Source: Nageia nagi
Lineage: Eukaryota; Plantae; Pinophyta
NCBI GenBank assembly: GCA_050084985.1
Contig: JBITNC010000001.1
Span: 63,798,001-63,862,000 of the forward strand
Direction of reading: 5' to 3'
Length of the DNA stretch: 64,000 nucleotides
Every line of letters starts with the position of its first letter. Within the stretch, counting starts at the first letter, position 1. A program made the translations under genes and the position numbers. Shown in pieces: positions 50 through 58,164 of the stretch. The notes beneath the pieces were generated by a model, which was given only the letters and a program-made list of their open reading frames with translations, did no database searches and had not been told where the DNA came from.

Positions 50-3000
50 GTTGATATTTAAACTATTGTCCAATTACTATCATTCATTTATTTGGATATT
101 TCTTTACACTTGTCAGCGTATTATTCCAGATTTCAATACTTCTGTAAAGATAATATATGTATTTTTTTCAATGGAATCGAAAAAGGTTATTGACAGAACA
201 GTGGAATGTTTTGAATTTGTTCTTTTTGAATTCTCATTCTTTAGTATTTTACAATTTAGTGCCAAGGCTTCTTATGGATGTTACATACTTGAGTGAGAAA
301 AAACCTAATTTAAAGCAACATTGGTTTACTTAGAAAAGCATTTTAGAGTTTCATTTTATCCTTGCTGCTTCATTTCCATTTACAGAGAGCAAGATTTTCA
401 TTTCTTTCCAGTACACATCTTAATTAATTTTGGCTCTTCTTCATCTAATTATAGAAGAGGAAGCCTTCAAAAGCGTCATCTGACATTTAATTAAATAATA
501 CTTTAATAAATAAAATTTCAAAAAGACGTTCTTAAATAAAACATTAATATTCCATATTATATATGAAATTAAATCTATGATCACGAACTGTCTGTCATTC
601 TTTTATTTTTTAACCATATAATGCTTTTCAAGAAATGATCAAACACTAAATTCTTTTATCCAAGTTACCTAGATCATAAATTTCACAAGTAAAACACAGG
701 TTTAGATGGGTGTTTTTATTGTTAACGTAGGCAGTAATTGTTTTAAAGATATAAAAGTTGTTTTTGCCACGGATGAGTTGCTATAGTTTTTGTTCATTGG
801 CCAGAAGTCAGCTTAAAAGAACCTTGCATATGATGATTGTAATGTCCCTATCTTGGACGCCCCATTTTATGATAGGAATTTTAGTTTTTAATTAGATTTT
901 ATAAAATTTAAATATGGCATGAGAAAATGGACATCCCATTTAGGGGAATAATATAATTTTATTTTATAAAATTAAGTTATGATTTTAGCATGTGTTCTCT
1001 TGGATGACTTAAGTGAAGGCATAATGGAAAATTATAACATTGAGTATAAAAGGAGAAATGAGCTCATTCTCATTCGTTCTTGGATTATTATTTCTCTTCT
1101 ATATTGTGGAGTGAGCTGCTATTCTAGCTAGCTTCCCATTCTCTTTTGCAGATGAAACCCTGTAGGAGATAGAGAATCATAGGATGAAAACCCTGTGATT
1201 CTCAAGGATCTAGGGACGAAAACCTTTGGGTTCTTGGAGAACAAGGACGAAAACCCTTGCTTCCTCTTGAAGTGAATTCATACTATGCTGAATTGGAGTT
1301 TGTGTTTCTTAGGTTTTGAAGGAGAGTATTCAGATTTGAGATCTGCATTGTTGGAGACTAGATCTGCATTGTTGGAGACTATATCTGCATTATTGGAGAC
1401 TAGATCTGCATTGTTAGACACCAGGTCTGTATTGTTGGAAACCAGATTTGTATTATTGGTACAAGATCTATATTATTCAGTCTTATATAGCTATTTTGAG
1501 ATTAGTACACTTCAGATTTTGTATCAGATTGGGACGTCCAACCCTAGGGAGCATTTGGAGGGCGTTTGAAGTATTTCACGCCAGAATTCAGTCTTCACCA
1601 TTGGGACATCCAGTTTTGGTGGGGATATCTGCATAGATCAGGACCTTGAAGGCTAGACCAACATTTTTATCATCAATTATGGGCTATTACTTGGACGGCC
1701 AGAGAGTGAAGGTTTAATTTGTTGATCTGAAAGTGAATTAAAGTATTTTTGGACTTGTACATTCCAGATTTATTGCTTCTGGAGAGACGCCCAGTATATA
1801 GGAGTCCAAATCTGCAATTTAGGGGTTTCTACATCAGATTTGAGTGTTCAACATCAGATTTGTGGCTCATAGATCAGACGTCCACCACCTGGTGATTGTG
1901 ATTTGCACTTGAAGGGTTTTAAAAACAGTTCTAATACATCCTTATTGGGACGTTCATCTTTGGAATTCATTTGAGTGTGATCTGCATCAGTATTTGAGTC
2001 AGCTTGACCCAACATCCAATTTGGGAACTAGAACTGAAGAGTTAAGTGTGTTTCTTCATCATTTCATTAGTGATCTGTTGTGCCCGCACAACACACCCCA
2101 AGATGTAGCATTTTTGGGACCCAATATTTTCTTGCAAAGGCATTGAGCAGCATTACCCAGGCATGATCAGACTACGGCCAGTGTAAGTATCCTTAAGGCC
2201 TAGATGATTGAGCACCAAGGAGACATGCATTCGGACTAATGCAAAGAGTTGAACTTAGCCAGTGGCCAAGTCAGGGCCTGCTCTCAAGCAACTTCTCATA
2301 GAATGGAGTCATGGATCATGACAACAACCAGACAGTGGAGTTTCAAGCAATTGGCTAGCAAGGTGAAAAAGATGCGTTTTGACAACATTTTAGTTCAGAA
2401 GAGTCAAGTTGACCAAAAAGGAGCATTTTTGCATAGGATCAGTCCACATGCACCAAGCGCAATACAAAGGCACATTTTCGCAAAATTTGAGCATAAAAGT
2501 GCCCAGATGATAGAATGAACACTTTTTTGTCAAGTTTGAGTCCTGGTCTAGTTAATACAATTAAGATGACGAAAATGCGCGTTTTTGTACAATTTGACCC
2601 CGAAAGGGGCATTTAGAATCAAAAGGTGCGTTTTTGTCACTTTTGAGCTTGGAGAGCCAGAAAAGGGTCAGTAACACGAAAAAGCGCATTTTGGTCACTT
2701 TTGAGCTCGGAGCCGGTCAGTATAGCAAAAAAGTGCGTTTTTTCACAATTTGAGCTCGGAAAGCTCGAAAATGACCAAAATTGCCAAGTTGAGCTCAAAA
2801 TGCTTAGAAACACTGGAAATGAGCGTTTTTGCATGTTTTGAGTCCGGAAAGGCCGGAAATGTAAGTTTTGAGCTCAAAATGCCGAAAATGATCTTTTTTT
2901 ACCATTCGAGCTTGGAATTGTTTGGAAATGTCGGAAATGGTCGAAATTCATACTTAGAGCTTGAAAATGCTGAAAATGGCCGGAAATGCACCGTTTGTGC

Positions 3001-6000
3001 TTGTAAAAGATGGTAAAGACCGGAAAGGATATCCCAGGATGAGTTAGAGAGCAAGTTTGAATGCCATTGGGGAGTAAAATAAAAAATGAGCTTTTTGGCG
3101 TTCGAAAAGCTTCAAGTTGACCCCGAAAAAGTGAGTTTTTTCAAAGTGCTCGGAATGAAAATCCGAGAGGTGTGATGCCAAATGACAAATCAAGGTCACT
3201 TTGCTCTTGGAAATGTCGAAAAAATCAACTTTTGACCCCCGAAGAGTTAGGGGGGAGTTTTCCAAGTTTTCCCTCACTTAATCAAATTTCGAAAAATGGC
3301 CTATTCTCTTCAAAACCTGCACCTACCTTTTAGGAGGTCCAAATTGATCTGAAATGGCAATTTTTGAGTTCAGGAGCGTAGAGATTGCGATTCTACATCA
3401 AATTGGTCTTTCAAGTTCGCAGTTTCGACAAGTTTTGCTCAATGAAAAGTGAGAAAAACAGGAAAATGAGCAAAAGGACAGCCAATGAGAATGCTCCAAA
3501 ATTTTGAAAATTCCAAAATTGCAAAAATGTAAATCCAAAGATGAGGTAGGGTGGCAAATCAAAAATTAAGCACTTCTCCTCTTGAAATTTTCGAAATTGG
3601 GTAAATTTTGACCTTCCTAGAGCTAGGTGCTGGTTTTGGGTGTTTTCCCTCATTTTTCAAAATCTTCAAAACACCCCAAACACCTCAAAACCTGCGCCTA
3701 CCCTTCTTGTGCCCCAAGAGTGAAACAAATTGGAAATTTTGACCTTCAAGGGGTATAGGATGGGATTCCACATAAGATTGATGATTTGAGTTTTTTAAAA
3801 AAATGAGATCTACCTCCTCAAATTATCAAAATTCGATTGGCCAATGAGAGAGCTCCAAATTTTTTCTAAATTTGAAGGAGACCAATATTGCCTCTTAAAA
3901 ATTTGCAAAAAAATTAATTTTTGCCCCTCCTTTTCCTAGGCAGCAGTTTTGGCATGTTTCCCATATTTTCCAAATTCTAAAAAAACATGCCAAGACTCCT
4001 AAAACTAGTGCCTAGCCGCCAAGCCTCCTTTTTTGCTCAAAAGTCAAAAAAATTATCCTAGAAGCATAGGAAATCCAATTTTGCATCTTTTTCAAGCTTC
4101 AAGTTTTTTGAAAAACATGGATCTACTCGCCTAAAATGACAAAATTTGGATCAGCCAATGGGAGAGCTTGAAAAGTTTTCAAAATTTTCAAAAAAATTTC
4201 AAAATCGAAATTGGAAAGAAAGGTACGATGCAAAATTCCAAGGAGATCAACATTGCCTCTTGCAACTGCAAAAAAAACAAATATACCCCCTCAAAAAGCT
4301 AAGCGGCAGTTTTGGCATGTTTCCCTCATTTCTAAATTTTCCAAAAACATGCCAAGCTCCTCAAAACCAGCGCCTAGCATGCAAGCCCCCTTTTTTGCCC
4401 AAATATGAAAAATTTGATCCTAGAAGCATGGGGAATCCAATTTTGCATCTTTTTTAAGTTTCAAGTTTTTCGAAAAAAGTGGATCTAACCCCTCAAAATG
4501 ACAAAATTTGGATCAGTCAATTTGAGAGCTACAAAATTTTCCAAAATTTTTAAAAAAATCTCAAAATCAAAATTGGAAAGCAAGGTAGGGTAGCAAATCC
4601 AAATGTGACCATCTTTGCCTCTTGCAAATTTGCCAAAAAAACAAGTTATTACCCTCCAAAAGGTAGGCGCTGGTTTTGCCTTCTTTCCCATGTTTTCTCC
4701 ACTTTCCCAATGTTGGGGATGAAAAGGCTAAGTTCAAAATGCAAATTTTTTGGTCTAAAAAGCTAGGATGTTGACATATGGCACTATTTGAGCTCTCAAA
4801 GTCTATAAATACAGCCATATCCCTCCATTTTTCTCACTTCTCATTTTTGCACCTTTATGCTGCCCAAATTTTTGAGAATTTGAGAGCCAAGTGAGAAAGA
4901 AAGCCATTTTTCACCTTTGGAGCATGATTTGAACACTTAACACTTTGGCCATTCACCCAAACTCCAATGAAATTCGAAATCCAACCATCCTCCATTCACA
5001 TGAACTTCGTTTTCCAAGTTTTTAAGGATTTTCATGTCAAAACCCCATTTTTCCAAACCTAAAACACTTGAAAATTTATTTTTTCAGAATTCAAGTTTGA
5101 TCACTTTTTTGGATACCCTTTATCCTTGTGATCAACTTTTATTTTCAGAAAAAAAACCAAAAAAAATATATATGATCCAAGATCTAAGTGCTCAAAATCC
5201 TCATTTCTTTAAAAACATTTCAAAGAAATTCAATTTGTTTTTCAAAAACTACAAAAATTATTTTTGAAGTCCGTTTTGGCCATTTCAAAGTTTGAAACAC
5301 CTTCCCCATCCATCTAAGGTGTTAGAACTAGATTCAGATATCATTCACCAATTTTGCCAAATTCCACCACTTTTTCCTGTTGAAAAAGTCAACTCTTTTG
5401 AGAAAAATTGAAAATTCTGCAAATTTCCTAAAATTTTGCCAAGGCATTCTCCTTTGAATTATCTTTTTATCATACCAAACTCACCCAAAAAAGCTTTGAA
5501 AGTTGCAAATCTTGACTTTTTTTGATGATGGTACACTTGGAGAAAAAAATGCCCAAAATGCCAATTTTTGGAAAAATTCTCTTAGCTTGCGTAGAAAGTG
5601 CCACAAGCTTCCCAAGACTCCTCTAACATTGTGTTGTTCTTTTAGACAGGAACAAGATGGCATTAGTTGCTCAGAATATCAAAGATAGAAAGCAGAAAAG
5701 GCTCACGATGGATAGTCCCATCACTCTTGAACATACGTCAGAGCCCATGATGCCTACTGCAAGAATCATTGACCAACTGAGTGAGATCGGAGATACAAAT
5801 TGTAACTCCCTTGATCCAATTAAAACTTTGATGAAAATACACACATTGGATCTAGATTTGATAGTGAAGGATACTTTGAAAACTTCCTTATCACTATCAA
5901 CTTCTATGGTGCCATTTGCCACCCCCTTCTCTGAGCTGTGCTACGAGCTAGGAAAGCATTGCGACTTTCGAAACCAAAGACTTCTTGATAGAAGAAACGA

Positions 6001-9000
6001 GAAAGGGCATTCGCTTGGAAGGGCGAAGGTCAATCATACAACGTGTAAGACTCCTTGAAATTCTACAAAGGGCTGAAACCACCGGCTGATTTGATCGGAG
6101 ATTGGTTGGTTGATGATCACAAGCATCTCACAGGGAGAGCCTTAGCAACGCCAAACAGAGGAGAGTTCTATCCAGTGGTCTTCCGAATAATATCAATGCT
6201 TTCCAGAGTGTTCGGACAAAAAGATGACACCAAATTCTGGTCAGAATTCGCGGGGTTTATATATCTAATTAGTAGCGGTAAAGGCATTAGATGGAGCAAA
6301 GTGATTAGTGATTCCTTGTCTCAGCAATTGAGACATATTCAGAAGAGCAAGAAATTCTACATGAACTCCTACCTGGTTTTCCTACTCCTTCATGGTAGGG
6401 AGAGGGTAACTTCAATTGCCAATATCCAATATCTGTATAACCCTACACATCCAGTGTGGGAAAATTACCCCTGGTTCTATGCTCATAATAAATGGAACAA
6501 CGAAAACTTAATGATGATGACTAATGGTTTTGAAGGCAAAATCTATGAAGAGATCTTGGGCAGAGCTAATGTATTCAAAATATCCAATGAAGCTGCTGCC
6601 ACTATCAGGGGACACATGGACTTCTTCATGGAGGACATAGAATTCACATATCTCAGAGTCTATGGCTCCAAAGAAGGTCCATACAAGCTACCCCTTTATG
6701 CAAGTGATCATCTCATCCTTATGGAATTCTCAAGACATTTGCTTAACGTACATGACAAGGTATGGGTAAAGAAGGTGGCCGCCAGCTACCAATTACCTCT
6801 CATCATTTGGGAATTATGAATGCACCACCTGGATTTAGATCGACATGATCAAACAAGAGCTGGCCAAGTATGAGTTCCCAATTGAAGTAGCTGCGGATAA
6901 CTATGATCCTGATGGAGTGATTGATGCATTTTTCCAAAAAACATGGAACGCATCATATCCACATCAGGTCTCCTGGTAGTATTGAAAGGTACAGGAACAT
7001 TCAGGATGCTTTGCAGGTTCAACAAATTCACATGGAGCTGAAGAAAGAATAAAAACAGCAAGAAGCCGAAGAAGCTGCTAGGTTAAGAGCCAATGCACAG
7101 GTCACTGTACCCCCGAGCCAAGGGTATATTATTTCTTTAATATCACCTTCAGTAATCCTAGCTCAAGGACAGAATGGGCAGTATGCTACCAACAACATCC
7201 TTGGACAAACTATTGAAACAACTGTCATGGGTATAAAGAATGCCATCCTGGACCTTAGAAAAGCAGGCTTAATCTCTTAACTACTCAAACACTTGCTGAA
7301 AAAGATAGATCTTCCACAAGGTTTGAATTGGAGTGGTATATGCCTGAATCAAAATCCCAGAACATCATCATCTAGTTTTGGCAAGTATGGGCTGAGCAGT
7401 TCGCCAGAGTCCGATGAAGAGATGGATTTTAGTGCAGTCATCGATATCAATATGGACAGAAATCAAGATATTGTCTTCGACAGGGTTGACATTGGTCATT
7501 CAGTAGAGATTCTTGACAAAGCTAGTCTCTCAATTGATGTGACTGTATAGCAAGCAGTAGGAGCAACCACCTCAAAATCCGCTTCTCAAAAACATGCATC
7601 GCAAATGCCACCATCGCAGAGGACTACAACAACATCAGTACAGAAGGGTATATCAAGACGTAGAGCAATGGCATCATCTTTAGGGGGAGATGATGGAAAT
7701 CAAGAGGATGAGGGAGAAAATGAAGAACAAAGAAGAAAGAGAAGACAAGTAGAGCATGATAGTGAGATCATCAAATACGGAGAGATGGTTCCCTATGGAA
7801 AACAACCCATGGAACCCCGCTTTGACATGGTTGCAGTGATGGCTAATTTGAGTTCAAATCACCCCTGTGAAGGAGAAGATTCCGAAGATGAAAATGAGGA
7901 ACTTCAGCAGATTGATACTCTTACCACCATTGTAGGAAAAATCACCTACAAGGACAAGTTGTACTTAAGAAAACACAAGGCTGGTATCGGAAAGTTTGCC
8001 CTTACAGTTGAAACAAAAGAAGCCCTAGTAGAGATTGTTGGCTCATTGGGAATGGAGCACAACATCATCACCAATGCACGGGCGTTAAGGGAATCCGGTA
8101 CCTTATTAAAGTTAGAGGTCTGAGAGTTGAAGAAGATAGTGGCGAGACAAGAAATGATTGACAAAGAAATCAAGGTTGCTAATTTGATGGTTGAAGACAT
8201 CAAAAAGCAGGTCGACTTAAACACTGGAATCACCGCTTTGAAACAAAGATGGACCAAGAACCTTATTGAGGCCATCAAAGCACTCCAGTCAAGTATGGTA
8301 AATCTTTATATTGAAGAGGAGGGGTCGCATTCTCAAGCAGAGAAAATAGACCAGTTAATTATCAGATGGAAGAGTGGGTACCCCACAATGTTTGACCTAC
8401 AGAGAAGGGCAACCCATCACCTATTCGTGCTCGATTTTTGCATTGATTGGTTCCAATTGTATGATTACCTATTTTACATCAAAGCAAAATCCACTTACTT
8501 CATATACACAAAAACTCAATTCAAAGCCATCATCAGTGAATAGGAAAGGGAATACGAATTCTAGGTACACTTGTTTGAAGAAAACGGTAGCATCAAGGAG
8601 TATATGACAGTGATGGCAATGATCCATGCCACTATTGCAGAACAATTGTGCCCCGAGGACCCACATAGCCTGAAGACAGGAAAACAAATGACAGGAGGGA
8701 TGAGATTGGCCGATTGGTGCAAGGAAATGGTCAAAAGCAATAAGGCCATCCTGGAGCACTTGTTATCAAACGAAGGAGCCCTCTAGACAATCCACCGTGC
8801 CATCAGGAATGTAGAAGCGTTCATGGGAGATGATTTTGAAGCCAAAATTGCTACAAACGTGCAAGTCATCTTTCCACAATCGCTAGAATAGAAAGGGGTC
8901 TATTTTGGCAAGTTTTTAATATGTAAGCCAAATATTGGCTAACTTAGTGGATTTCCACTAAGTTTTATTGTAATCTTAATTAGCAATTTCAATTAGCTTG

Positions 9001-12000
9001 TAAATAGTTTTACTATTGCAATTAGAGATTAGGGTTTCAATAGTGACTTTTAGGGTTTCCTAAAGTCTATAAATAAGAGATCAAGGGTCTCATTTCATTC
9101 AATGACTTCATTTTGAAGCAAAACACTTCAAGCTTGAAGAGAGAACTTTGTAAGAGAGTAGCAAATTGATGTATCCTTGCACAACTCTTTTTCAAATTAA
9201 TACAAAGTGGTTAAAGCAAAGATTTGAGTTTGAAACTTTTCATATTGGTGTTATTGATTGAGTCTTTGAGAGCACTCATAGTGGATTTGTGTACTTTCGT
9301 TTTATTCCTTTGAAAGCTCATGAGCTTTAGGGAAGTTATCTCTGAAAAACTTTAAAAAGTGCTTGAAGTCTACCTATGCTTGTTGCTTGATCCTTAACAT
9401 GCAAGTTGATTGGCTATTCTATGTCATATTTCTACTTTCATGACATCATGTTAGGTCCTTCATCCAAAACCATGATCCTTTCATTTTGAGATTTTCCATC
9501 ACCATCCATTTGACGTTCCTCCCCGCTCCTCTTTGAAGCATTTCGAATGTTGAGTTGTTTGCTTGCAATGTTGGATGAATTGGATGAAAAGTCCTTAATT
9601 GATTCGGAAGAGATCAACTTTTAGACACTTTCCCGTTATTGAACCTCGAACTCATAATCCAACCAAGTATCCATTTGTTTCTCCAAGGTGTTGTCCTTCA
9701 TCTTTTACCATTTTTTCTTTTATGCTTTATTTATACTTTCAAGCCCAAATACAATCATTAAGTCCACACACAAAAGTTCTGAACAAACTCTATACATCAA
9801 AGAATAAAACATCGTTGGTTAACAAACTACATACCTCTCATTCCATTCTATTGAGGCTGATTCCAAAGAGGGATACCGCACTTTCTTTCTATATATATCC
9901 CTATTCAGAAAACACACTTGACAAACAAGCATTACGCCATGACGTTGGAGTTGTTGGGCAAGGTGTTTCAACAAGAGCCTTGGAGTTACACAATCCTTTT
10001 CAACCGGGGGAATTGGTAACACATTCCCAACTATGTTGTTTGAGATCTCCTAAGTTTCTCCCGCGATATTCAGAGTGTCCCGCACGGGAAAGAAAAGTAT
10101 CCTAACATGATCTGCATTAGGTGTGAATTAGACTGGTTTATTTTAATTGCTGCCATTGTATTTTAGTGTGATTTATCAGACATTGCAATAAATATATCAG
10201 ATTTGCAATTCTTTTGTTGTGGATGTTTTGAGTTGTGTGATTTTCTAGTTAGAATTTGTGAAAACTTACAATTACAAATCAAGAAAGTTTTGGTTTTGAG
10301 CACAAAAATTTGCAGCTAGGATTTGCATTTTCAGTTTGGGGATATTTTATGTAACTGAATCCTCCTTTATAAGAGATTTTTACCTTTACTCATCTGCCAT
10401 CTGAAATGATCATTCAGCTCTTTTTGTTGGAGTATATCGAATTGGGTTCTAGAATGCAGTTTGCCTGCCTTCTGTGCTATTGGTCTTTCACTCCATAATT
10501 AGTATTTGAGCTGAGTTTGGAAATTTGGAATTCACTAAATTCACTAAATGTCATCAAATTTGGAAATTTTGATTTCAATATTTTGGCTTCTTTCTATACC
10601 ATGCTAAGATAAGTAAAACATATTTGTATTGATCTTATAATTGAAAGTTACTGTAAATTATTCCAATGAAGAAACTCTTTTATTTGGCATAAAATGGTCA
10701 GGTTTACATCTTGGTCTATTTAAAATGCGAAAACCATTTCCAATATCTCCGAGATGGGTTTAAAATTATGGCATTTCTTTGGACGTATTAATTTGAAGAT
10801 ACAAAAAAATAAGGTTCTGTTAGATCACAGTTTTGTTAAGAAGTTTAGGAGGCATCTATATGAATCCTTTCATTGGATATTTTTTAAGTTGAATTAAAAT
10901 AGTAAATACTCAATTTGATGTACAGTTTTTGAATTATACTTCAGGAAAGTGTTGCTGCAACCTTTGGAAATGGGGTATCTTCTGCATGCGTAGTGAATAT
11001 TGGTGCTCAAGTTATATCCATTTTGTGTACCGAGGCAAGTTCAACTATTGTTTATTAGATTTTGCTTTTCTTGAAACAGGCTATGCATGATGTTTAGTTT
11101 GCTGACTCAATAATAAAGGATAGAACAAACATTGTACATCCCTTATCAAGAAAATCCAATTCTGTTGGACTCTTCAAAATGAGGGATCAAAAATTTTAAA
11201 TGTATTGCTTTTGCCTATTTCCATGTTTGCTCACGATGCATGTGTATGTTTTCCTTGTAATTGTATTCCTGTTAATATTCAGGATGGAGTTGCAATGCCA
11301 ACAACAAGGGTTACACTCCCATTTGGTGGAGAGGTAGGACTACTTTTTTAAGTGATCATCATTGTAAGTAATAGAAAATCTGTTCTATTAACAAATTTCC
11401 TACAGACGATCTTGAATTCTTTTCAGATATGCTGGAAATTCTCTATTGATGAGTATTTGGTGTTGGATTTATCTTTACATTGTAACTTTTATAATTCTCA
11501 GACCATTATATCTTTGGTGTGCACACACGTATGCTGATTTGAACTTTACATAGACTGTTGCATACTCTAAAGCTTTTTTTAGGTTTTTTATTTTTTAATT
11601 GTACATAACTTTGATGGGATTAAAAAGGATCTACATCTTTGTGAAGAAACTATTGCATTTCCATGTACATATCTTCCTTAATAGGCCACACATGTCTTCG
11701 TTCATCATAACTCTGAACTTGACACCTCTATTATGGTTTATAAGTATCCTAAAGTGGACATTATCTTAGTGTGAACCGTGAATAGCTTTTGAGAACTCTG
11801 CATTTTAGTATCAATACTTATTATGTGCTTAGGCACCACATATACTGGTAGTTGCATTGTCAAAATTTGAACATCTGGTGATTCCATGGTGCAACTGAAG
11901 TTGTTATAAATAGAGGATAAAATTAGTTTACCCACCAGAACCTGATGTTCTGTTCTTTAGGGTATATGGACAAGGTAACACTTACGATACCTATGATGTT

Positions 12001-15000
12001 ATACAAGGTAGATGTGTGTGTCCTATATGTAATGTCCCCATTTTTAGCATTTCGCTCATTTTTGCATTGTAATGTATTTATTGGGCCACATGGAGTGGAA
12101 CGCCCCTCTCTCGAAGTTATTAGGAGTGATTTTTAGTAGTTAGGAGTGATTCTTGATATTTTTAGATAATAATGGAACTTTATTTATATTTGAATGTAAT
12201 AATGTACTTGGAGATCTGAAATTTGTAATCCTAAGAAAGAGTTAGAAGTCTCTAGGTGGGACGCCCAACTATAGGAGTATTTTATTACATTAATAGCGGT
12301 TATGAAATGATATTGAGGTTCCTTGGTTTCAGCGCTGATTTTTGGGATCTCAATGAGGAATTAGAAGCACAAGAGGGGATGTCCAACTCTAAAGAGGAGC
12401 CTCCCATTTTGAGGACATCTTTGGCTTCCATCATCTCAGTCACTTTTTGTGGACGAAAACCCATAGGAGAGAGATCTAGAGGATGGAAACGCTCTAAGAT
12501 CTAAGGGCTTAAGGATGAAAACCCTTGAGTTCTTCGGTGGTGGATCCAGTTGGGGTTCACACTTGCATTCCATCTTCATTCTAGAGCTTAGATCTGGGGG
12601 GTTGAGGGCCTAGAGTGAGATGCCCAGCTTGGGGAGGAGATATTTCAGCCTTTCATCCATTCTTCTCCCCTAGACTCAGATGTGCAATAGTTTGAACTGT
12701 TTAGAGTGTTGTTTGAGCATCATTTGTCCTCTCTGGGGGTGAACATGAGGGTGCTCTCCTCTCTGAGGAGGGATCTCTTTGGTCAATAAGGTGCGTGCCT
12801 ATAGAGTTGCTATTTTGGGAAAGAAGAATGTGATCTGTCAAGTCCTCAACGGAGCTTGGGGATCCTAAAGGTGCCTTTTGGTACAATGTTTGGGGAATAA
12901 AGAATCATCTCGCCATCTCCTATGAACTCCTCTAGTTGGAGAAGCTCGAAAAAAGGAAGTGATGCGGCGATCACATGTCGGGTGTGTTGAGTGCGAGCAA
13001 GAGATGCTTCCATATAAGGAAGGTCTCTTGGAGATGAAAAGCTAGACAACGAGCCATGTGCATCTCGAAAGAGAAAGTAATATCGACCTTGGATCTCATA
13101 GTAGGTTGAGCACTGGAAAATGAAGTGGTCCTCAAACTCTATCTCAAGTGAGCAAAGGCGACAAGCACGTAAATCACGGGCTAGATGATACTCTATCTTG
13201 ATCCTCAATTGATGTGGTCAAACTCAAAACTATCCTAAGAATGTCCTCAAATTAGGAGGAAGATGTAAACTGAAATATCCTGGTGGGAGGATCAAACCAT
13301 TGTCGAGTTGTAGATACCGTTGTGCATAATGTACCAACTTTGGGGACAGTGGCTGAGGGGATGAGACCCATGTGATTTATATATAGACCTTGTAGATGGT
13401 ATCTTGGACCTTTGATAATGAGTTTGTTGGAGAACTGATTGAACTCTCCTGTGGTGCAGGACGAATATCCAAAGAGAAACCAAATCTCTGGAGTATCTCA
13501 CTAACCTTAGCAAACTAACATCTATGGCAACCTTGTGCGGCTAGATCCATTGAAGAAGCCAAAGCCCTTGAAGAGAGTCTCCTTGTGTTGCCTTGATGAC
13601 AAGAAAGGTGATGCAAGCGATGGAGAAAGAGGACTATGGAAGTGAGGGCTCACACCTGAAGAGGTTGGCATCCGAACTCTGCCAACATGATAAGGTGGGG
13701 TACCATCCTCTTGCTCTGAATGGAGCAGAGAAATTTGGCACTTGCTTGTGAAGAGGATTCTAGCATAAAAGGTAAAAATTACTAGCAATAACTATATTAT
13801 AAATCCATGTAGAAAATATTGTGGAAATGTGAGATCAAACATAGCAATAATCGTAAACTATGACAATGGGAGACTAACATTTGTAGAGGCAACCTCTCAA
13901 AATATGTAAACTCAATATAAAATATGTCTTTCATTTGCCCTAAGAGCTTGCATTCTTTGCCTTTTCTAAGTGTGATTCAAATTAGCATATTCTTCTTGCA
14001 TATGTTATGTGTTCCCTATATTCCCTTACATATTATTCCTTACATGCAATTTTTCTTTAGATCTATATTCCCTTACAATAATATGTGATATGTATCCACT
14101 CTCATACATTATGAATGATTTGTGCTCACTTGTATTTTACCTTCCAAATTTACATAGATTGAATACATAACACATTTCAAATCTCCATGGTTGTCACAAG
14201 TAAGCAATAGTTTGCCTCAAAACTCTTTTGCTTCTCCTTCTCCTTGGCCTCATTATTATCATTAGACAAGGTCTTTCAATCCTTTGGAGGAAAGTAATGA
14301 TTTCCCACAAGTTTTCATAAGCCTTGGGACCTCAATAGAATTTGCATATTGATTCTCCAATAATCATAGTCTTCATCATGTAACTTAGGAAGAGGAATAT
14401 TTTGCACTTCAATGGAGTCTTGTATTGCTCTCAAATTAGTAAAAACAATCATGATACATACACATAGCAACACCACACACCAAAAAATGAAAAAAGAATT
14501 TACAATATATTACATTTTGGGTACGTCCCTTAAATTTTCTATGCTAGTTGGATTCTCATGAAGTCTTCAGTAACTCCCACATGTCTCTTGGCTTGCTTGA
14601 AGTTGGGAAGACATTGACTTTTTATTTTATTTCATTGTCTATCTTTTGAATAAGAAATAAACATGTCAATTTTTTCATGAAGTGATAAACACCTCATGGT
14701 TTAGTTTTTTGCAAGATTTATTTTATAGCATTTATTTGTTTTGTCCACTTGAGGGAAAAACCCATGTATGGACCATTTCTTGCAAATAGAGGGTCCAATT
14801 TGTTGTTATGTTTTTCTCTTTTCATCCAAAACATGCACAAGACTTGGAGAAAACAACGTTACTTGTTGTCGCCTGAAAGGATTGGTTACCCCAAGCGCTC
14901 CCATGGAATATGGACTAGGGCACAATGGATAGAGATGCATGTTGGTAATTGTATATGAGGGAAATACACTGTCGAAATTCGTTTCACAAAGAGAAAAGAT

Positions 15001-18000
15001 TGCAAAGGTGAATGAAAGTGAAGAAAGATCACAAATGCAAGGATAAATGCATAGGAATATGAATAATGAACTTATGAAGGTATCACCAGTGATGCAATGT
15101 CTCGACAGGTCATCTTTGGATTCTTTAAGAAAATGTATCCACTTATCAAGTTGGGCATCAAATAGCAATAGGCTCAAGTTACTACCAAACGAGAGCAGGA
15201 AGCTGTAGGGTCTGTGATGGAAGAATCAATGGAATGGGATGAAGGGAAATGACCAACATGTGAATACATAAATTCTAACTGAATGACATAGAGATAAGCT
15301 ATACGCCACAGAATACATCCACTTGCATACAAATCATACAATGAACAATTTAAACCGCTTCGAAAGATATTCAGCTATCTTCCCTTAAAACTTGTAGGTT
15401 TCAAAGAGAATGCACTTAAGCAGTAAAAATTACTCGAATCGGCAAGAAAATCTTACAGGATAATATGCATGATCCCACAAATGATAATCTTCATAGCATT
15501 TACTTTACAAAACCATTCCAAAAAGAAATAAACTCACAATGACATTCAATAGCACGAACAGAAGCATTTCTTTCTTGATTGCAAAGCTCTCAATATGATA
15601 TTCAACATGAAACATAGATATGACAATCTGCAACCTTGATATGCATAGAATCCCTTATGTAGCAAATCCTTATGCAAACCATGTGCAAAAATCCTCAGTT
15701 TCAGCAGATGCAACAATCTTATGCAATCAATATTATGCAAAAATCCCCTTCTAAATGGCCCGAGTAAAATATAAATAGCCCACTAGAAGTGCTGCCCTAA
15801 AGGCATCAAATCTGATATGGTGTGCTCACATGCAACACACATACCAATGCAAAAACTATCTTTTACAAAAAACTATGCAAGTGGTATTTAAAAAGCTGAC
15901 AAAATATAAATGCCAAAACTGTAATGTATTTAATCTACCTCTAATCTATGCAAACGAGAAATCAGATATGCACTAAATGTTTGACATCTGAATTGGAGGA
16001 GCAAAACTTCATCCTTGTACCAGTCAGATCCATAAATGAGTTTGACATATTTAATTTAGAGGGAGCAAAACTTCATCCCTACACTAGTCAAATCAAGTAA
16101 ATGAAGTCTAAATACAACAACCACCACCATCAATATGCATTAAACATAGAAAAGATAATCGCAGATAGAATCTACGAGTGGATCAAATCTAGGCTAGATC
16201 TGATCCGGTACCGGCGGAGTTCCACTCTGTGGTGAGACTGTATAACTCAATGGGCTCTTCTAAGAAAACATGACCTTCTGTACTCCCTTGGAAACCATAC
16301 CAACAATGCTACCATTCTGCCTGAAGTAGTCTCCAATCTGCCTAGATGTAGCCTGCATCTGAAATCTCCAGATGACCATCTGCCTCTCATGATGAATGGG
16401 TTGCCTTGCCTTTAGTAGGTTGAGATCCTTGAACTCAAGATGTTCCTGGATTAGATTTTGAGCCTCTGCCAACACCTCTTCCTTCCTACGCATGCTGTTA
16501 TCTTTCCCTTGAAACGTTAGCTAGTTTACATATTTGCTCATTTGTTCTTCTAACTTCTTTCTCAAAGGTATCTTGACTTTCAAAACAACATTACACTTCT
16601 CCACTGCATGCTTCAGCTAGTCGTGCTAATACAAGAATTCATGGCAATAGACTAATTTCTTCGGTCTGTTAGCAAAGATCTGCTACAAATGGGTGACGGT
16701 AGGGAGATGACCATCCAACTTCTCGAGGAGGGCTATTATTTGGAACTTCAACTCCCGGATCTCAACACCTTCCTCCAGGAGGCTATATACTTGAGAAGAT
16801 AACTTCTCAATAGTCTCCATCATCTTCAATTGGTCCTTCATCAATTCCCATCTTGCATGGAACAAGACTTGCTTTTTCAATTCTATAGGGGTGGTGCTAA
16901 CAATTTGGAACTCCTTAATGATTTTCTTGCTAGCTGCGAGTTCCTTCTTGAGTCTTTTCACCACCTTCTTGGCTTCATAGCCTTCTTGTTCCATGATAGC
17001 AAAATTCTGAGTAACAATCTGCTTCTTGGTTGTTAGACCTAACTTAACATGCATCTTGAATGTTTCTATCATACAGTCCTCGGGTCTTTGCGGATGTTTC
17101 TCCTTGGATTAACAATGGTTGATGGAGATCTCCTTTCTTGAAGTAGAAACAAAAGTATCTAAGTGAGCTGTGTTCATGCTCACTTTCTCACCATTGGAGA
17201 CCTCCTCTTTTTCATTTTTAGACCTCAAGTTCTGATCAATTTCTTCATCGTGAGCTGTGTTCATGCTTAAGGCTCTTAGGCAAGCATCTAAGTCAAGATT
17301 TGGGTGTTTGATTGCTGGCTTGGGAGGGAGCCTCTGCACAACACTCGACCTTTATTGATCTTCTCGACTTCCTTTGTGAGAGTGGCTTGAACAAGGGCAA
17401 CTTGCTTACCCTGATGCTCATCCTGCTTTCTCTTCTTCTTTTGTTCTTCGGTCTTTCCTTCATATTCTTCATCTCCACCATCACCACCTAATGATATAAC
17501 TTTCTTGCATGGTTGAGGTGATCTTTCATGGCCGGTCCTCTTCAAAGAGGGCTTCTGGGAAGACGAGGGTGACCTCTTTCCATGTTCGGTAGGATAGAGT
17601 TTGGAAGAACCCACCTCTTTGGCATATTTCACTCCAACTATATGGACTTCTTCATCATAAATCCCAATGTCTATGAACAGGTCATCATCATTGTCCAGGA
17701 GAGTTTCAATTTTCGTATCATAAGTGCGGAAGAACCTACAGCTACATTCTCTTGACAGGGGTACTCTTCATCAACAACATCATTTGCATCATCATCATCT
17801 TCTCCTTCTTTCTCTTCACCATAAATCTCTTCATTGTTTTCTTGACTCTTTGTCTCTTCTTTTGAGCCTTCTTCAGTGCAGCCAGGTTTTTCATCACTTT
17901 CTTCATTAGAAGAAGTGGAGTGTTCGGAAGAACTGGAACTTGGTTGTAATGGGGGAACTTGCTCTCTACATCTAGAAGGACAAGTGGGTCTTGGTGGAGT

Positions 18001-21000
18001 TTTTTCAACAGGGGAATCATTGGCATAGGCTTCCTCCAGTATGCTTAAGGGGATATCATAGTAACCAGTGTCTCTAAGATCAGCCACCACCTGCTGGCTT
18101 TTCTTTGCTACATTAGCCACCACACTGTGTTTACTGGATCCTATTGAGGCATGCTTTTTTGATGCTCCTTATCTTGTGAGCAAAATGTAACTCAAAGCAA
18201 AATCAGCAAATTCGATTACAATAACCTTGATGTCAAGCCTAGGGCATCATCTACAAGTATATACCATACAAAACTGCCAATGTCTAAGCTGGGGTTACAT
18301 GATCAAGCATTTACAACATCCATACACCAACATTTAGCATATCACAGTGGATATCACTTTACAATGCCAATGTCTGGCTCATGCATGCACAAATAAGCAA
18401 TGGTAACCCAATGAATGCACAAGAGTAATGAAGACAATACAAATATGCGATCCAATGCCCTTTTGGCTATACGAAAGATATAGAACGATGATGAATACAA
18501 TACTAGGCCTAAAAGGGCTAACGTTGGCCTCTTAGGAGCCAACTAAGGCAATATAATGTATCTCTCACCATTGGAATAATATCAGAACCCTGGGATAGTA
18601 TTCCTCCTTTGAATAAGAATCCTCTCCATCGAAGGAGTCCTCATCAAACTTTGGATAACCACCCAAGGTAGAAGCAATACCTCGGAATACCACCGGATGG
18701 GCAAAGGTGCTACACTAGTGCCGCAGACAGACAGGATCCTTTAGCCTGAATGCCCTCTAAACGCTGCGCCTATGAAGGTTGCTTAGCACCGCTAAGACTT
18801 GCTGTCCTCTGGATGATATGACAGTAATAATGATCAAGTATATCCAGTAATGAGGCTCCAATGTCTATTTATACATTTTCTTTGTTCGGATCTCACCTAG
18901 GAGTCATCACCTGTCGCCTCTAATCCAACGTTGGCCTCCTGGAGGCTCGAAATACCCAACGTAGGTGTCTAAAGGTAGACATGCCAATGTGGGGGCCGGG
19001 GGTGCATTAAGTGCCAACGTGTGAGCCTAGGAGTGCCACGCCTGCCCATGTGGGTCAAGGGGGAAAACATGGGGTCTAGGTGTCATGCTGGGCCAATATG
19101 GGGGTATGGGAGCCTTCCCAAGCCTAGTACAAGCATATAAGTGGCTGGCCATCACCTCAATGTACAATAGACCTTGGGATTCCCACAATCATGTTTCGGG
19201 ATCTCTAACTATGACAAATACACCTAATCTAACCTTAAGAGAGAGACATCCCACTTGGGGCTCACAGTGGGGTCTATTGACCCATTAAATCTCCTATCCT
19301 AAGTTACAAACATGAAAGTGTAATGCATAAATAAAGTATATTACAAGAGAAACCTATTGGTTCCCATGATTAATTTCGACCATGCAAGGGGGATGTCACA
19401 TGTCTTTTTCCCTATGGGAAGCAAGGATGTCTTGACTTATGGAGGTGCAACGCTTGCAGAAGGAGGCGACGTTTTGATCCTCAACAAGACCTCTTTAGGT
19501 CTTGCTTTTACAGTTCTAGGTCTTTGAGGTGCCTTCTCTACTTGAAGGGGAGCCTTATTTATGCTCAAAAGAGCATCTATCTTCGCTATCTCCTCATCTC
19601 ACACATTTCTGAACTTTTCTGCATTCCCTAAAGATTTGTGCTTGTAAACAACAGGTTTCTGGAATGCGGTGTTGAAGAAATGGGCGATAACACCTTTAGG
19701 ATCATAGTTTCTAGCTACTATCTCCTTGAAGAAGACATACTGCTGCAGCTCCTTCATGCTATTAGCCTCATCCTAGGTTTGGCAAACATAACTTGCAATT
19801 GAGATGGGCAAGTTAATGGTTGTGTCCTTCTGTCTCCACACTCGTTCCTTCAAAAATAGTAACTGTTTGGAAAATTCCATGAGAATCATTCTGTCATTGG
19901 CATATCTAGGTAGGATTAGGGGTTGCTCTTCAGAGCCATAGACCTTGATGTAAGTATGATCAGCATACTGCAGGTAGAAGTCTACGTGTACACTAATGGC
20001 TTGAACAAAAGCATTAGAGATCCTCTTCATTACTGACTTACCTTTGATTTCCTTATAAATGGCATATTCCCACTCGTCATTTCTCTCATAGAAATGCTTG
20101 AATTTGTTATGGTACCACCACTTTAGATGAATTTGCCACACTGGGATGCCTTTCTTTTCTAGATATCCTTCATCTTCAAGCTCCTTTGACCTGAACTTGC
20201 CATGCAACAACAGGTACACAAGATAAGAGTTCATGTAGAACCTTCTGGAAGAGCCAAAGTAGGCTAGCTGGTGGCGCAAGGCATCATTGATTACCCTGCT
20301 CCATCGGATAGCTCTCCCTGAGTTGATCATGGCGATAAATCCAATGAACTATTTCCAATACTTGGAGTCATTTTCCTGACCTATGACTCTGGACAACAAA
20401 GTGATCATCTTAGTGATCGTGGAAAGGAACTCTTCCCTACGAGCACTCATCAATCTCTAGCCTTTGATACCCTGGTAGTCTTCACATAACCATCTTCTAA
20501 TATAATCTCCAGGTCGGGCAATGGAGTCATGGAATTCTTTCGAATGGGCCAGTGTATGATCATCTCCATATCTTCTCCAGCCAAAAGTGGCTTCAATCCC
20601 TTCTGGAGAGAAATCCATGATCATGTTCCCTTCAGTGTCCAAGAGAACTCTCTTGTCATACTTGCAACGTTTGGAAACTTCATAACACAACTCATGAAAT
20701 GAAACAACATAAGGCATCATAGTGGCATTGAATAGCCCACAAGAATGGATGATTTCATTCGACAGATCCTTCTTGCTGATGGAGGCAGTGGATGCTATGG
20801 TCTGGATGAGGTCAACATTTCCCCAATCTGATTCACCAATGAAGATGAATCTCCCCTTAAACTTGGCTTCAGGGAGCACTGGTTTTTCTCTTTCTTGGAA
20901 CCCTATTTGACTTTCCCTCAAGAATCTCTCTATCTGGTCATCTGTGACATGTCTTTCAAAATGTTGCCCATGAATCTTCCTGGCCTTGGTTGGGGAGGCC

Positions 21001-24000
21001 TCACCTTAGAAGTCATCTTCAAATATGAAAAATGTGTAGAAAACTAGAAAAAAAGTTGGAATTCTAGTTGGAAATGCCCTAAGAATGGTCAAGCACCAAA
21101 TTGGATGTGTGTAGAACCAGACGTGCTGGTTTAGGCTGCAAAATGTCCTGCAGAAATGAGCTGGGACTGCCCTCTTATAGAAGCTGCATGGAGGGTTTAT
21201 GCATGGCACATTGTATGTATGCCACCTGTCTTCTTAATCTTTTGACTCTTAGCTTCTTCAATACCTAGTCAATCTCAGCTCATAGTCCCCAAGGCGCATG
21301 GATTTGGGTACGTGCTTTTTCACTGCTTGAAAAACATGCAAAAGGTCTCTTGATGGGCAAACACATCACTTAGTCAAATCTAGGGCAACAATATTCCATT
21401 TGAAAGGCCATATCATCACTTCATGCTAGGGCGCACGGATTTAGGCATGTGCTTTTTCATGTCTTGCAAAGCATGTGCCTCAAATTTCATGCATAAACAA
21501 AAGGAGAATGGATTGCACATGATAGTGTATACTTAGCCAAATTCCTGGATTTGGACCTAGGCACACCGTTTTGAATGAGTCCTTCAAGCACTAGTGAGAA
21601 AATATGCGCATAGGTCAATTTAGGGCAAGCCTTATCAGATAAATGTAAGTGAATTACAAAAAACAGATCTTGAGATCCAACTCACCCCCTTAAAGAAATG
21701 GCTATTGGTAGTTCAGACGCCTCCTCAAACCTTTATTTCTCCTAGGTGCACCAATTTAGATGAGTCCTTAAGCATGTCCCGGAAATAGTGCGAATGGGAG
21801 ACTTAGTCCAAAATGAAATGAAGTTTAAAATGATACAAGGGATGACTTCATATGTATAACCTTCAAGTGTCCCAAGTGTCACCTTTTGGTTGGTTCCAAA
21901 TGATGTCAAATAATGGAGCCAGGATGTGCACGTTTTAGAGTACATGTAAAAGCATGTCCCAAAATGCATGGGCCAACCAACTTTAGTGCATCAAAAGGAC
22001 TTAGTCAATTTCATCATCCTTGAAAACCCTTGCAACTTGGTTGCACCCTTTTGGAGGGGTGCAAAAAGCATGTCCCAAAATCCTTGCGCCTACCAAAGTA
22101 GACACCTTAAAAAATACTTAACTCAAAAATGCTCCAGAATTTTGGGCGCACCTTTTTAGAAGAGTGAAAAAGCATGTACCAAAAAACATGCAGCTAGGCC
22201 TCTTTTACAGAATTTTATACTTAGTCAAAAAAATGCGTCTGGGCCAGGACGTCTAGAAGCTGGCGCACCAATTTGAGTGAGTGCCTAAGCATGTCCCAAA
22301 ATCCTTGCGCCTACCAAAGTAGACACCTTAAAAAATACTTAAAAATGCTCCAGAATTTTGGGCGCACCTTTTTAGAAGAGTGAAAAAGCATGTACCAAAA
22401 AACATGCAGCTAGGCCTCTTTTACAGAATTTTATACTTAGTCAAAAAAATGCGTCTGGGCCAGGACGTATAGAAGCTGGTGCACCAATTTGAGTGAGTGC
22501 CTAAGCATGCTCCAAAAACCATGCGCATAGTCCTGTGGCACACTCTTGAATGCAATGAATTAATAATTAATGAAAATGACCTTAAAAATCATCGTCCAAA
22601 ATAGGGTGCACCATTTGAGGGATGTGCGTTTCTGGACTTAGCGCAACACAATGCTCCGAAATCAACCAAACAAATTGAATGCTAAAGCTAACTTTCCTTT
22701 TATAGACTTGCTCAAGTGGATAGGTGTCATGCAACAATTGGTGTGAGTGAAGGTCCAATGCGTGTGAACACACTTGTCCTTTCTTATTGAACGTCCAGAA
22801 TCCTATACTTTAGCCAAAATTTCCCACATGAAGGAGGGCGCATCGATTTGGGTACTTGCAAAAGCATGTTCCCGAAACCATGCGCTCAACCAATTCAACC
22901 ATTTTTTCTTCAAAATTGGCTAAGTGTTGAAAGTACTCCATCTGCCAAGGCGCACTGATCTGGGTACGTGCAAAAAGCATGCCCCTCAAAGCATGCGTTG
23001 ATGCTGTTTTGACATTTTCCTCTAGAATTTGCTAAGTGTCAAGTTACCTCATTCGCCAGGGTGCATTGTTTTTGCAACATGCAAAAGCTTGTCCCTCAAA
23101 GCATGCGCTTAGGCATAGAACATGCTGATTTACTTCAAAATGACTAGAATGACCCTCAATAATGGGATGCAGTGGAGGGGATGCAATTCACAAAATGACT
23201 AAGTGAAAATGGGCATGAATGATGCAGTTTAAACCCGAAAATGGGTCCTTAAAAATTGCAAATTTTTGGAGGGTGTTGTGTAGGCACAACACAATTGATG
23301 GAGGTTATTGATTGTCCATCTTTGAGGTGTCTCATATGTTTGAAAAGAGCATTGTCCATGGTATGATGTGATATGTGCCATTGTGAGGACCTCTTATGCA
23401 TTTTTATCAGTAGAAGTGTGAAGAATAATTTTGTTTGGATCTAGATAGCTATGGAGAGATTGTTGTTGTGGGACTTGGTTGTGATATTTTCTTGATGTCT
23501 TGAATCTCCTCATTGTTTGGTTTTGAATAGTCTAGGATTATTTGAGATGTGTTAGAAACCTAATCCTTAGTGATTAAAGTTATTTTTATTGTATTAGTTT
23601 TAGAAGTCATAGTTGTGATATTATATTTAAAGTATATGCATTTTTAGGTTTAACTATTGATGTAATTCCAAGAGTCATATGAAGTTGAATATGGAGAGTT
23701 TTTAGGGAGTCTAAGAGTTACCTTGTGCTTGGGTCTTTGCTTCAAATTCCAAACACTTGCGCTTGGGTCTTTGCTTCAAATTCCAAACACTTAGCCAATT
23801 TCAACCCCAGGCCAAAATGCCTAGGACTAGGCACATGACTTGAGAGGTGTGCTTTTCATGCACAGGAAATGATGCGACTAGGGTCTGGCACACCTCCTCA
23901 GACAAGAAATTTCAATAATGACTAAAAAATGCAAACCTGACATAGGTTGCACGTTTTGGAGAACGTGCTTTTTCTCCTTTGACTCCATGCAATGCTCCAA

Positions 24001-54873: not shown

Positions 54874-55224
54874 GTAAGTATTCCATCTTATAATTATACA
54901 AGTATAGTAATTCAACAACTGCATTACAAATTACTTTGGCATATCCTCTTTTCCTGTTGTGTTGTGGGACTGTTTTTGACTTCAAAAATACAAGGCTTCT
55001 ATTGTGAGATCATGAAAACATAAAGACTGTCATATTGCTTGGTTTCTCTTTCTCTTTCCCTGTCATGCACAAAAACCTTTCATAGAAATGATAATGAATT
55101 TTTTGATTCTTAATCAGTCAAAAACTTGTGGATGAAAGGAGGAACCCATCTTTTGATCCAGCTCACATTTCTATCTATCTCCACTAATATTCTTGTTTTG
55201 ACAATATAGCTTATGATTCCATCA

Positions 55225-58088: not shown

Positions 58089-58093
58089 TAAAT

Positions 58094-58110
58094 TGGCGCT
58101 AGAAGGAGGG
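58094..58110 (+). other. Primer binding site, tRNA-Asn(GUU)
   Basis: TGGCGCTAGAAGGAGGG is complementary to the plant tRNA-Asn 3' end (CCCTCCTTCTAGCG-CCA, from recall). Confidence 0.8.
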
Positions 58111-58164
58111 CCTTGAACTGTTTCTTTTTCAGTAAAGCTTGTTTCTCTATTTTATCTTGTCAAG

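Follow-up and report, generated by a model that had tools for sequence, protein, structure and literature searches.

An unusually placed, conserved accessory gene of retrotransposons: probable giant solo long terminal repeats of Nageia nagi encoding a protein with a predicted VANC/PMD-like fold

The locus

The 64,000-nucleotide stretch of Nageia nagi DNA analyzed here (contig JBITNC010000001.1, forward-strand positions 63,798,001 to 63,862,000; hereafter the window) contains two diverged copies of one long open reading frame (ORF), each enclosed in a unit with the ends of a long terminal repeat (LTR). Unit A (2076..10107, + strand; 8,032 bp) runs from TGTTGTG to CTAACA and is flanked by a perfect 5-bp target-site duplication (TSD), TGATC, at 2071-2075 and 10108-10112. 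Unit B (14801..23291, − strand; 8,491 bp, or ~7.26 kb net of an insert) runs from TGTTGTG to ACAACA, with a perfect 5-bp TSD, AATTG, on both sides. ORF A (5657..8891, +), a pseudogene of ~1,075 codons, is broken into four frame pieces by frameshifts near 6001, 6805 and 6980-6996 and contains ~10 internal stops. ORF B (16260..21016, −) comprises ~1,170 decayed codons, its 3′ end being uncertain by ~70 bp, and is split by an unrelated 1.2-kb LTR-like insert (18175..19400, −) that is 79% identical to 25671-26633 and is flanked by AGACA and AGATA, which differ by one mismatch. A homologous protein, P0021, aligns with B on both sides of this insert in register (residues 1-190 and 190-235). Overall, the accessory gene is genuine, conserved and unusually located for a retrotransposon, and the modeled fold of its product points to a testable, predicted role in anti-silencing.

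Coding evidence

The cores of ORFs A and B were found to share 107 of 269 amino acids (40%; E = 1e-68), and the tails 57 of 259 (22%; E = 8e-06). Identity of the cores at codon positions 1, 2 and 3 was 0.57, 0.65 and 0.37, with a saturated proportion of synonymous differences (pS, 0.81) and a nonsynonymous proportion (pN) of 0.39, and 1-7 stops were counted in the coding frames versus 11-46 in the other five frames. Judged from these comparisons, which bear the mark of purifying selection, the ORF is an old protein-coding gene formerly under such selection, and not a product of chance. The initial annotation, made from the letters of the sequence, had placed a conserved protein at 5657..8890. 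All 14 of the motifs that it quoted were recovered (seven from A at +5927..7745 and seven from B at −20699..17426) and the conserved coding region is real, but A is not one open frame and B is split by its insert.

The ORF might also be a fragment of a host gene, or a frame open by chance, that a repeat captured. Capture of gene fragments by transposable elements (TEs) is frequent in gymnosperms (PMC13477047). However, the ORF has hundreds of diverged relatives, occupies the same position in two families with purifying selection between them, and matches no Pfam family or PDB chain by sequence, all of which renders capture very improbable.

Boundaries of the units and the solo-LTR interpretation

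A profile built with A left out placed the start of A exactly at 2076 (E = 7e-11; next match 0.028) and its end exactly at 10107 (E = 1.3e-4; next match 0.67). The LTR start motif was located at four places with at most three mismatches (seven matches over both strands, 0.17 expected), and the starts of units E and F, described below, were added by alignment to these four. The U5-like end of A (9972..10107, +) is common to B, D, E and LTR F; a simple U5 motif pattern gave two matches in the window, in B and E only, and the profile test was used instead. At the LTR start stands a short, almost perfect palindrome, TGTTGTG...CACAACA (2076-2093, +; 23274-23291, −; 24658-24675, −), in which the motif of the element's own 3′ end recurs 18 bases in.

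Contigs from four public runs, representing at most three samples and used for cover and not for level, were observed to cover roughly 1970-10180 densely, ORF A included, and the flanks barely. Thirty-eight of them (17, 8, 10 and 3 per run) stop exactly at 10107, and their loose ends agree at only 0.43-0.53. This disagreement beyond 10107 indicates many different insertion sites at one exact boundary.

TG...CA termini together with a 5-bp TSD, within the 4-6 bp expected of a Ty3/gypsy solo LTR, were found in A, B and E. Within A and B no second LTR was found (there is no direct repeat between the first and last thirds), nor any credible primer binding site (PBS), nor gag-pol in a Pfam search of the window pieces, nor a polypurine tract (PPT) followed by an LTR start downstream of the ORF. 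Since the units contain no second LTR or PBS and their ends are homologous to those of F, an LTR followed by a PBS and gag-pol, A and B are probably giant solo LTRs that carry the ORF in U3. That the ORF lies inside an LTR can be stated with good confidence. The initial annotation had described the protein as encoded by the LTRs; the termini, the TSDs and the homology to a PBS-flanked LTR favor this, but no element with two ORF-bearing LTRs around gag-pol was seen. Two other candidates were considered for these units: a Helitron-like 3′ hairpin at the end of A was dropped when TG...CA ends and a TSD were found, and a short-LTR non-autonomous element (of the TRIM or LARD type) was dropped because A and B have no terminal direct repeat.

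The units could instead be self-contained LTR-derived elements, mobilized whole by a TatII integrase and devoid of an internal region. Such elements would fit the presence in the window of three TSD-flanked single units versus one full element, and the flanks listed behind the end of A, which are heterogeneous with no PBS seen. However, they would lack a PBS, a PPT before the LTR start and a terminal direct repeat for reverse transcription; a consensus drawn from contig counts is unable to show a shared PBS; and recombination into solo LTRs is what one would expect of very long LTRs. This explanation is regarded as improbable.

A further explanation makes the ORF an ordinary internal extra ORF of the 3′ kind, and derives A and B from deletion or recombination that fused LTR halves to it. 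Plant extra ORFs are usually internal (PMC7264820), a 3′ extra ORF (eORF-3′F) is carried by 26% of the 27 TatII elements in REXdb, and D and F are related LTRs of 2.5-2.8 kb without the ORF. Against this, two families only 40% identical agree in layout, and each has a perfect TSD of its own; the ORF is followed by no PPT and LTR start; and no joint among the 15 listed, out of 98, skips it. A fused origin is therefore given little credence, and location of the ORF within giant solo LTRs is preferred.

LTR F and the lineage of the units

LTR F (55572..58088, +; 2,517 bp) has the same class of termini as A and B and contains no long ORF. Five bases behind it lies a PBS (58094..58109, +), which we take to match the 3′ end of tRNA-Asn; the window offers no other convincing one of this type. 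A decayed region with gag, aRH, reverse transcriptase (RT), ribonuclease H (RH) and an integrase zinc finger follows (58465..63700, +), with a protease-like region recognized by eye, and has the TatII order. An aRH placed between protease and RT is the defining feature of TatI/TatII, and of these TatII is the gymnosperm clade (PMC6317226). This aRH was seen in the pol of element F, not in a cognate pol of A or B, and A aligns to F at the termini only, so that the lineage assignment of A is indirect. Going by these termini, A and B likely belong to the gymnosperm Tat (TatII-type) Ty3/gypsy retrotransposons. The F element (55572-63700, +) is apparently cut inside integrase by other sequence near 63700.

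Domains, family and predicted fold of the protein

ORF A begins with a conserved N-terminal globular region (5672..6934, +), of which the first ~300 amino acids are predicted to be VANC/PMD-like; a predicted beta/alpha subdomain of ~110 amino acids follows, with no clear match. An acidic linker with the basic cluster RRKRR, resembling a nuclear localization signal (NLS), lies at 7677..7745 (+) and is conserved in B (71% DNA identity over 91 nt); a second kind of basic cluster in the ORF pieces is KKKRK. The C-terminal helical, heptad-rich region (8046..8813, +), 22% identical to that of B, is predicted to be a coiled coil on a crude heptad score alone. No membrane-like stretch was found in the A and B pieces scanned, the B linker pieces being outside the scan; the highest 19-residue hydropathy was 1.19, and no env-like transmembrane helix was detected in them.

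No credible Pfam family was found for the window pieces, for 60 of the 150 listed homolog matches or for 109 aligned family members. Within the same scope the hidden Markov models (HMMs) of DUF1985 (VANC), PMD (PF10536) and Transposase_32/Athila remained unmatched, and no gag, RT or integrase match was obtained in the ORF A and B pieces. No PDB chain was matched by sequence at E < 0.3. A five-sequence profile, on the other hand, retrieved 277 clusters (50% identity) at E ≤ 0.001, 95 of them at 1e-10. These are mostly fragments, the longest stored homolog being 488 amino acids, and no longer homolog was found among 685 candidates in a word-indexed search, which is weak evidence; a profile search there returned four proteins. 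Among 30 clusters looked up, homologs with a species name occurred in two, from Taxus chinensis only, and family fragments carry hypothetical-gene annotation in Taxus. Locus retrieval in the Joint Genome Institute (JGI) metagenomes and in IMG/VR returned nothing.

In a fold search, the best solved-structure match for the ~300-residue core was VANC21 (PDB 9LNK), a DNA-bound structure, at 6-10% identity and with moderate support. Foldseek returned no match against PDB or BFVD at E ≤ 0.001, and no solved PMD or Transposase_32 structure was among the fold-search rows, an absence that is not evidence. In the ESM Atlas, neighbors were annotated as Transposase_32 (12% of members, score 0.85) and ATHILA (17%, 0.82), both below 0.9 and thus at the level of leads; a second Atlas search, in which P0033 was compared with named clusters, yielded no usable match. 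On balance, the N-terminal ~300 residues probably adopt a VANC/PMD-like fold, as modeled.

The initial annotation had read the product as a folded domain, acidic linker, NLS and coiled coil with no RT, integrase, gag or obvious transmembrane/env motif, and had likened it to PMD, VANC or Transposase_32 accessory proteins. The absences hold in the Pfam and hydropathy scans, and no sequence match pointed to a host gene or to gag/env. The basic clusters are present and the fold is predicted, but the heptad tail is judged on its crude score only; likewise, the PMD/VANC likeness agrees moderately with the fold search, but not with Pfam, where neither PMD nor DUF1985 matched. The link to Transposase_32/ATHILA found no Pfam match and is left as a weak Atlas lead.

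Regulatory context within the units

Upstream of ORF A lie degenerate tandem repeat arrays (2465..4711, +) with periods of ~50-100 bp and 362 bp, which are candidate binding arrays, and upstream of ORF B arrays that include a 216-bp duplication (21289..23114, −). Each unit has its own set of enriched U3 7-mers: GAGCTCA in A (7 versus 0.4 expected), AAGCATG in B (12 versus 0.7) and AAAGACA in F (10 versus 0.5). This unit-specific enrichment results from tandem repeats, which Tat-type elements commonly carry.

A TATA-like box upstream of ORF A (4803..4811, +), identified by motif match only, is a candidate ORF promoter, and a second one downstream (9067..9075, +) is a candidate ordinary LTR promoter; the region around the latter is 62% identical to unit D over ~700 bp. 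The order within A is accordingly arrays, TATA-like box at 4803, ORF, TATA-like box at 9067 and conserved end. The distance from the upstream box to the ATG is ~850 bp in A (4810-5656, +) versus ~160 bp in B. Immediately ahead of the start codon, the A leader (4810-5656) ends in a pyrimidine-rich AG; it possibly contains an intron in the 5′ untranslated region.

Proposed role

VANC removes silencing and binds short family-specific tandem motifs located in noncoding parts of the transposon that encodes it (PMC5735166; PMC10398659); it shares its fold with MAIN/PMD and is a predicted coiled-coil oligomer (PMC13547354; bioRxiv 2024.09.27.615353). By analogy, the ORF product would likely be an oligomeric, sequence-specific DNA-binding factor for its own LTR. 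The fuller interpretation, that A and B represent an accessory gene of solo LTRs whose nuclear, VANC/PMD-like DNA-binding product protects or activates its own LTR, is advanced tentatively, with a little less than even confidence, and an anti-silencing or activating role of the protein, taken by itself, calls for similar reserve. The upstream TATA-like box would drive a separate mRNA for the protein, which would oligomerize via its coiled coil and bind the family-specific repeat motifs in the U3 of its own LTR. The bound LTR would stay free of silencing marks or transcriptionally active, as with VANC on VANDAL tandem repeats. Owing to its location in the LTR, the gene would be duplicated at each retrotransposition and survive solo-LTR formation, and so could act in trans. 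The wider proposal, in which a giant LTR with a VANC-like factor and its binding arrays forms a self-contained trans-acting anti-silencing cassette of gymnosperm TatII elements, solo LTRs included, must be called doubtful.

A protein with the same LTR location and fold might instead be a structural or chaperone accessory protein, an oligomer like Athila ORF1/Transposase_32 serving nuclear import, the particle or integration targeting. The Atlas neighbors with Transposase_32 (0.85) and ATHILA (0.82) are in line with this, Athila-domain proteins are also predicted coiled-coil pentamers, poorly characterized (PMC13547354), and nuclear-import roles have been proposed for accessory ORFs (PMC7264820). 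However, the Atlas scores lie below 0.9, among solved structures the best match is a DNA-bound anti-silencing factor, and the gene stands behind its own TATA-like box and beside repeat arrays. A structural role is therefore considered unlikely, though it is the strongest competitor of the anti-silencing role.

Several points weigh against the preferred interpretation of a solo-LTR gene with an anti-silencing product. Both copies in the window are dead pseudogenes, and no full-length intact copy was seen among the homologs. No two-LTR element of the kind mentioned above was seen, and F, the only PBS-flanked LTR, is without a long ORF and aligns with A at the termini with no internal match. The 38 flanks behind the end of A yielded no PBS consensus, although a consensus by contig count would hide one. 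The tally of three TSD-flanked solo units versus one full element is at odds with the Pinaceae, in which solo LTRs are reported to be uncommon, with one for about every 4-7.5 complete elements (PMC5751070). Large Tat-type elements often contain tandem repeats in any case (PMC6317226). Finally, MAIN/MAIL1 were first described in gene silencing (PMC5418596), so a shared fold shows no function.

Related units and neighboring repeats

Unit C (23560..24675, −) is a 5′ fragment with the same terminus, whose other end was not found. Unit D (32215..35051, −; 2.8 kb) shares the 5′ terminus and has a 3′ part like that of A, no long ORF and an unclear TSD. Unit E (42597..51847, +) has the same termini, the TSD GATTC/GATTC and a nested insert at ~43147-49085. 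A short, decayed ORF of E (50213-50650, +), located between its two TATA-like boxes, has a basic N-terminus and a helical tail; homology of this ORF to the A/B linker or tail was rejected, as 97-419 of 500 shuffles reached the score.

Unit A sits in another LTR-like sequence (839-10270, +), which starts TGTAATGTCCC and for which no matching target duplication was found; this host sequence is weakly similar to an LTR-like stretch near 12030-12700. A second family of LTR-like repeats of 1-1.5 kb occurs at 18175-19400, 25671-26633, 36401-37376, 43147-44634 and 48017-49085, and the pair at 43147 and 48017, nested in E, encloses chromovirus-like RT/RH/integrase remnants (45880-47812). Two short matching ends (GGATTAGGTTTCTAACA, minus strand), possibly copia-type LTR ends, were noticed by eye in 23540-25420, a stretch overlapping unit C and bordering on the start of B. 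Also by eye, 26800-28430 (−) presumably holds decayed hAT-like transposase remnants, and 12950-13400 (−) what we take to be the 3′ end of a reverse transcriptase remnant resembling that of a long interspersed nuclear element (LINE). Short AG/GT-bounded stretches (~11280-11340, ~53740-53790 and ~54825-54875, +) resemble host-gene exons, and the whole repeat nest may lie in long introns.

Significance

Tested sequence-specific anti-silencing has been described for VANDAL DNA transposons (PMC5735166). A gene for a predicted VANC fold within an LTR, beside family-specific repeats, would supply a testable protein-motif pair, and bears on the origin of the PMD/VANC fold and on the persistence of retrotransposons in the heavily methylated giga-genomes of gymnosperms. 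If the proposal is correct, solo-LTR formation removes gag-pol yet retains a trans-acting gene, and the system would be a retrotransposon counterpart of VANC and a gymnosperm branch of the PMD/VANC fold. In that case, the cassette would have been overlooked because LTR finders limit LTR length at ~6 kb: REXdb was built with a limit of 6,000 bp, which LTRs of 7-8 kb such as A and B exceed.

Comparison with known systems

What distinguishes ORF A/B from other genes of terminal repeats and from other accessory ORFs? Retroviral genes encoded in LTRs are known, namely sag of mouse mammary tumor virus (MMTV) and nef of human immunodeficiency virus (HIV), which overlaps U3. They share with A and B the location in a terminal repeat, but are unrelated and far shorter than the plant ORF of ~3.2 kb. 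For plant LTR elements, the literature places extra ORFs internally (PMC7264820; PMC11728184) and assigns them no known function (PMC7264820). In the full-text literature searched, which did not extend to paywalled articles, supplementary files on bioRxiv or the paper on the VANC21 structure, no description was seen of a long ORF in a gymnosperm LTR or of a VANC-like gymnosperm retrotransposon protein.

TatII gymnosperm elements of REXdb resemble A and B in the termini shared with the LTR of an aRH-bearing element and in the 5-bp TSD. Among the 27 TatII elements there, eORF-5′F occurs in 23% and eORF-3′F in 26%, with no domain assigned; these near-equal shares would be the pattern expected from an ORF in both LTRs. 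TatII LTRs of up to about 5 kb are given for REXdb in PMC6317226, whereas A and B measure 7.3-8.0 kb.

Athila ORF1/Transposase_32 (PF03078, PF20167) is, like ORF A/B, a sense accessory ORF of the OTA clade with weak language-model similarity, and its motif spacing, as we assume, looks like that of ORF A/B. However, the Athila ORF is internal, whereas ORF A/B lies in an LTR-type unit and none of the 109 family members matched the HMMs. The PMD (PF10536) ORFs of TatIII/Ogre, together with MAIN/MAIL1, parallel A and B as a Tat accessory ORF with a globular domain and coiled coil. The TatIII ORF is internal, antisense and 3′, and that of Ogre 5′ or 3′; ORF A/B is sense and lies within a unit of LTR type whose ends are TatII-type. 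ORFs with PMD and a coiled coil occur in other Tat lineages, but one survey saw none in lineages I and II (PMC4408406).

VANC (VANC21, PDB 9LNK; from VANDAL, Mutator-like) is like the ORF core in predicted fold, and both are TE accessory genes with a predicted coiled coil and with family-specific tandem motifs in noncoding parts of the same element. The host element of VANC is a DNA transposon, whereas A and B have the LTR-type termini and 5-bp TSD of a retrotransposon. VANC is called dicot-specific in PMC13547354, whereas ORF A/B is likely gymnosperm; identity to VANC is 6-10%, and ORF A/B has an extra subdomain of ~110 amino acids and a long tail. Compared at the level of sequence, ORF A/B is not a member of VANC, PMD or Transposase_32; by analogy, it is plausible that it works like VANC.

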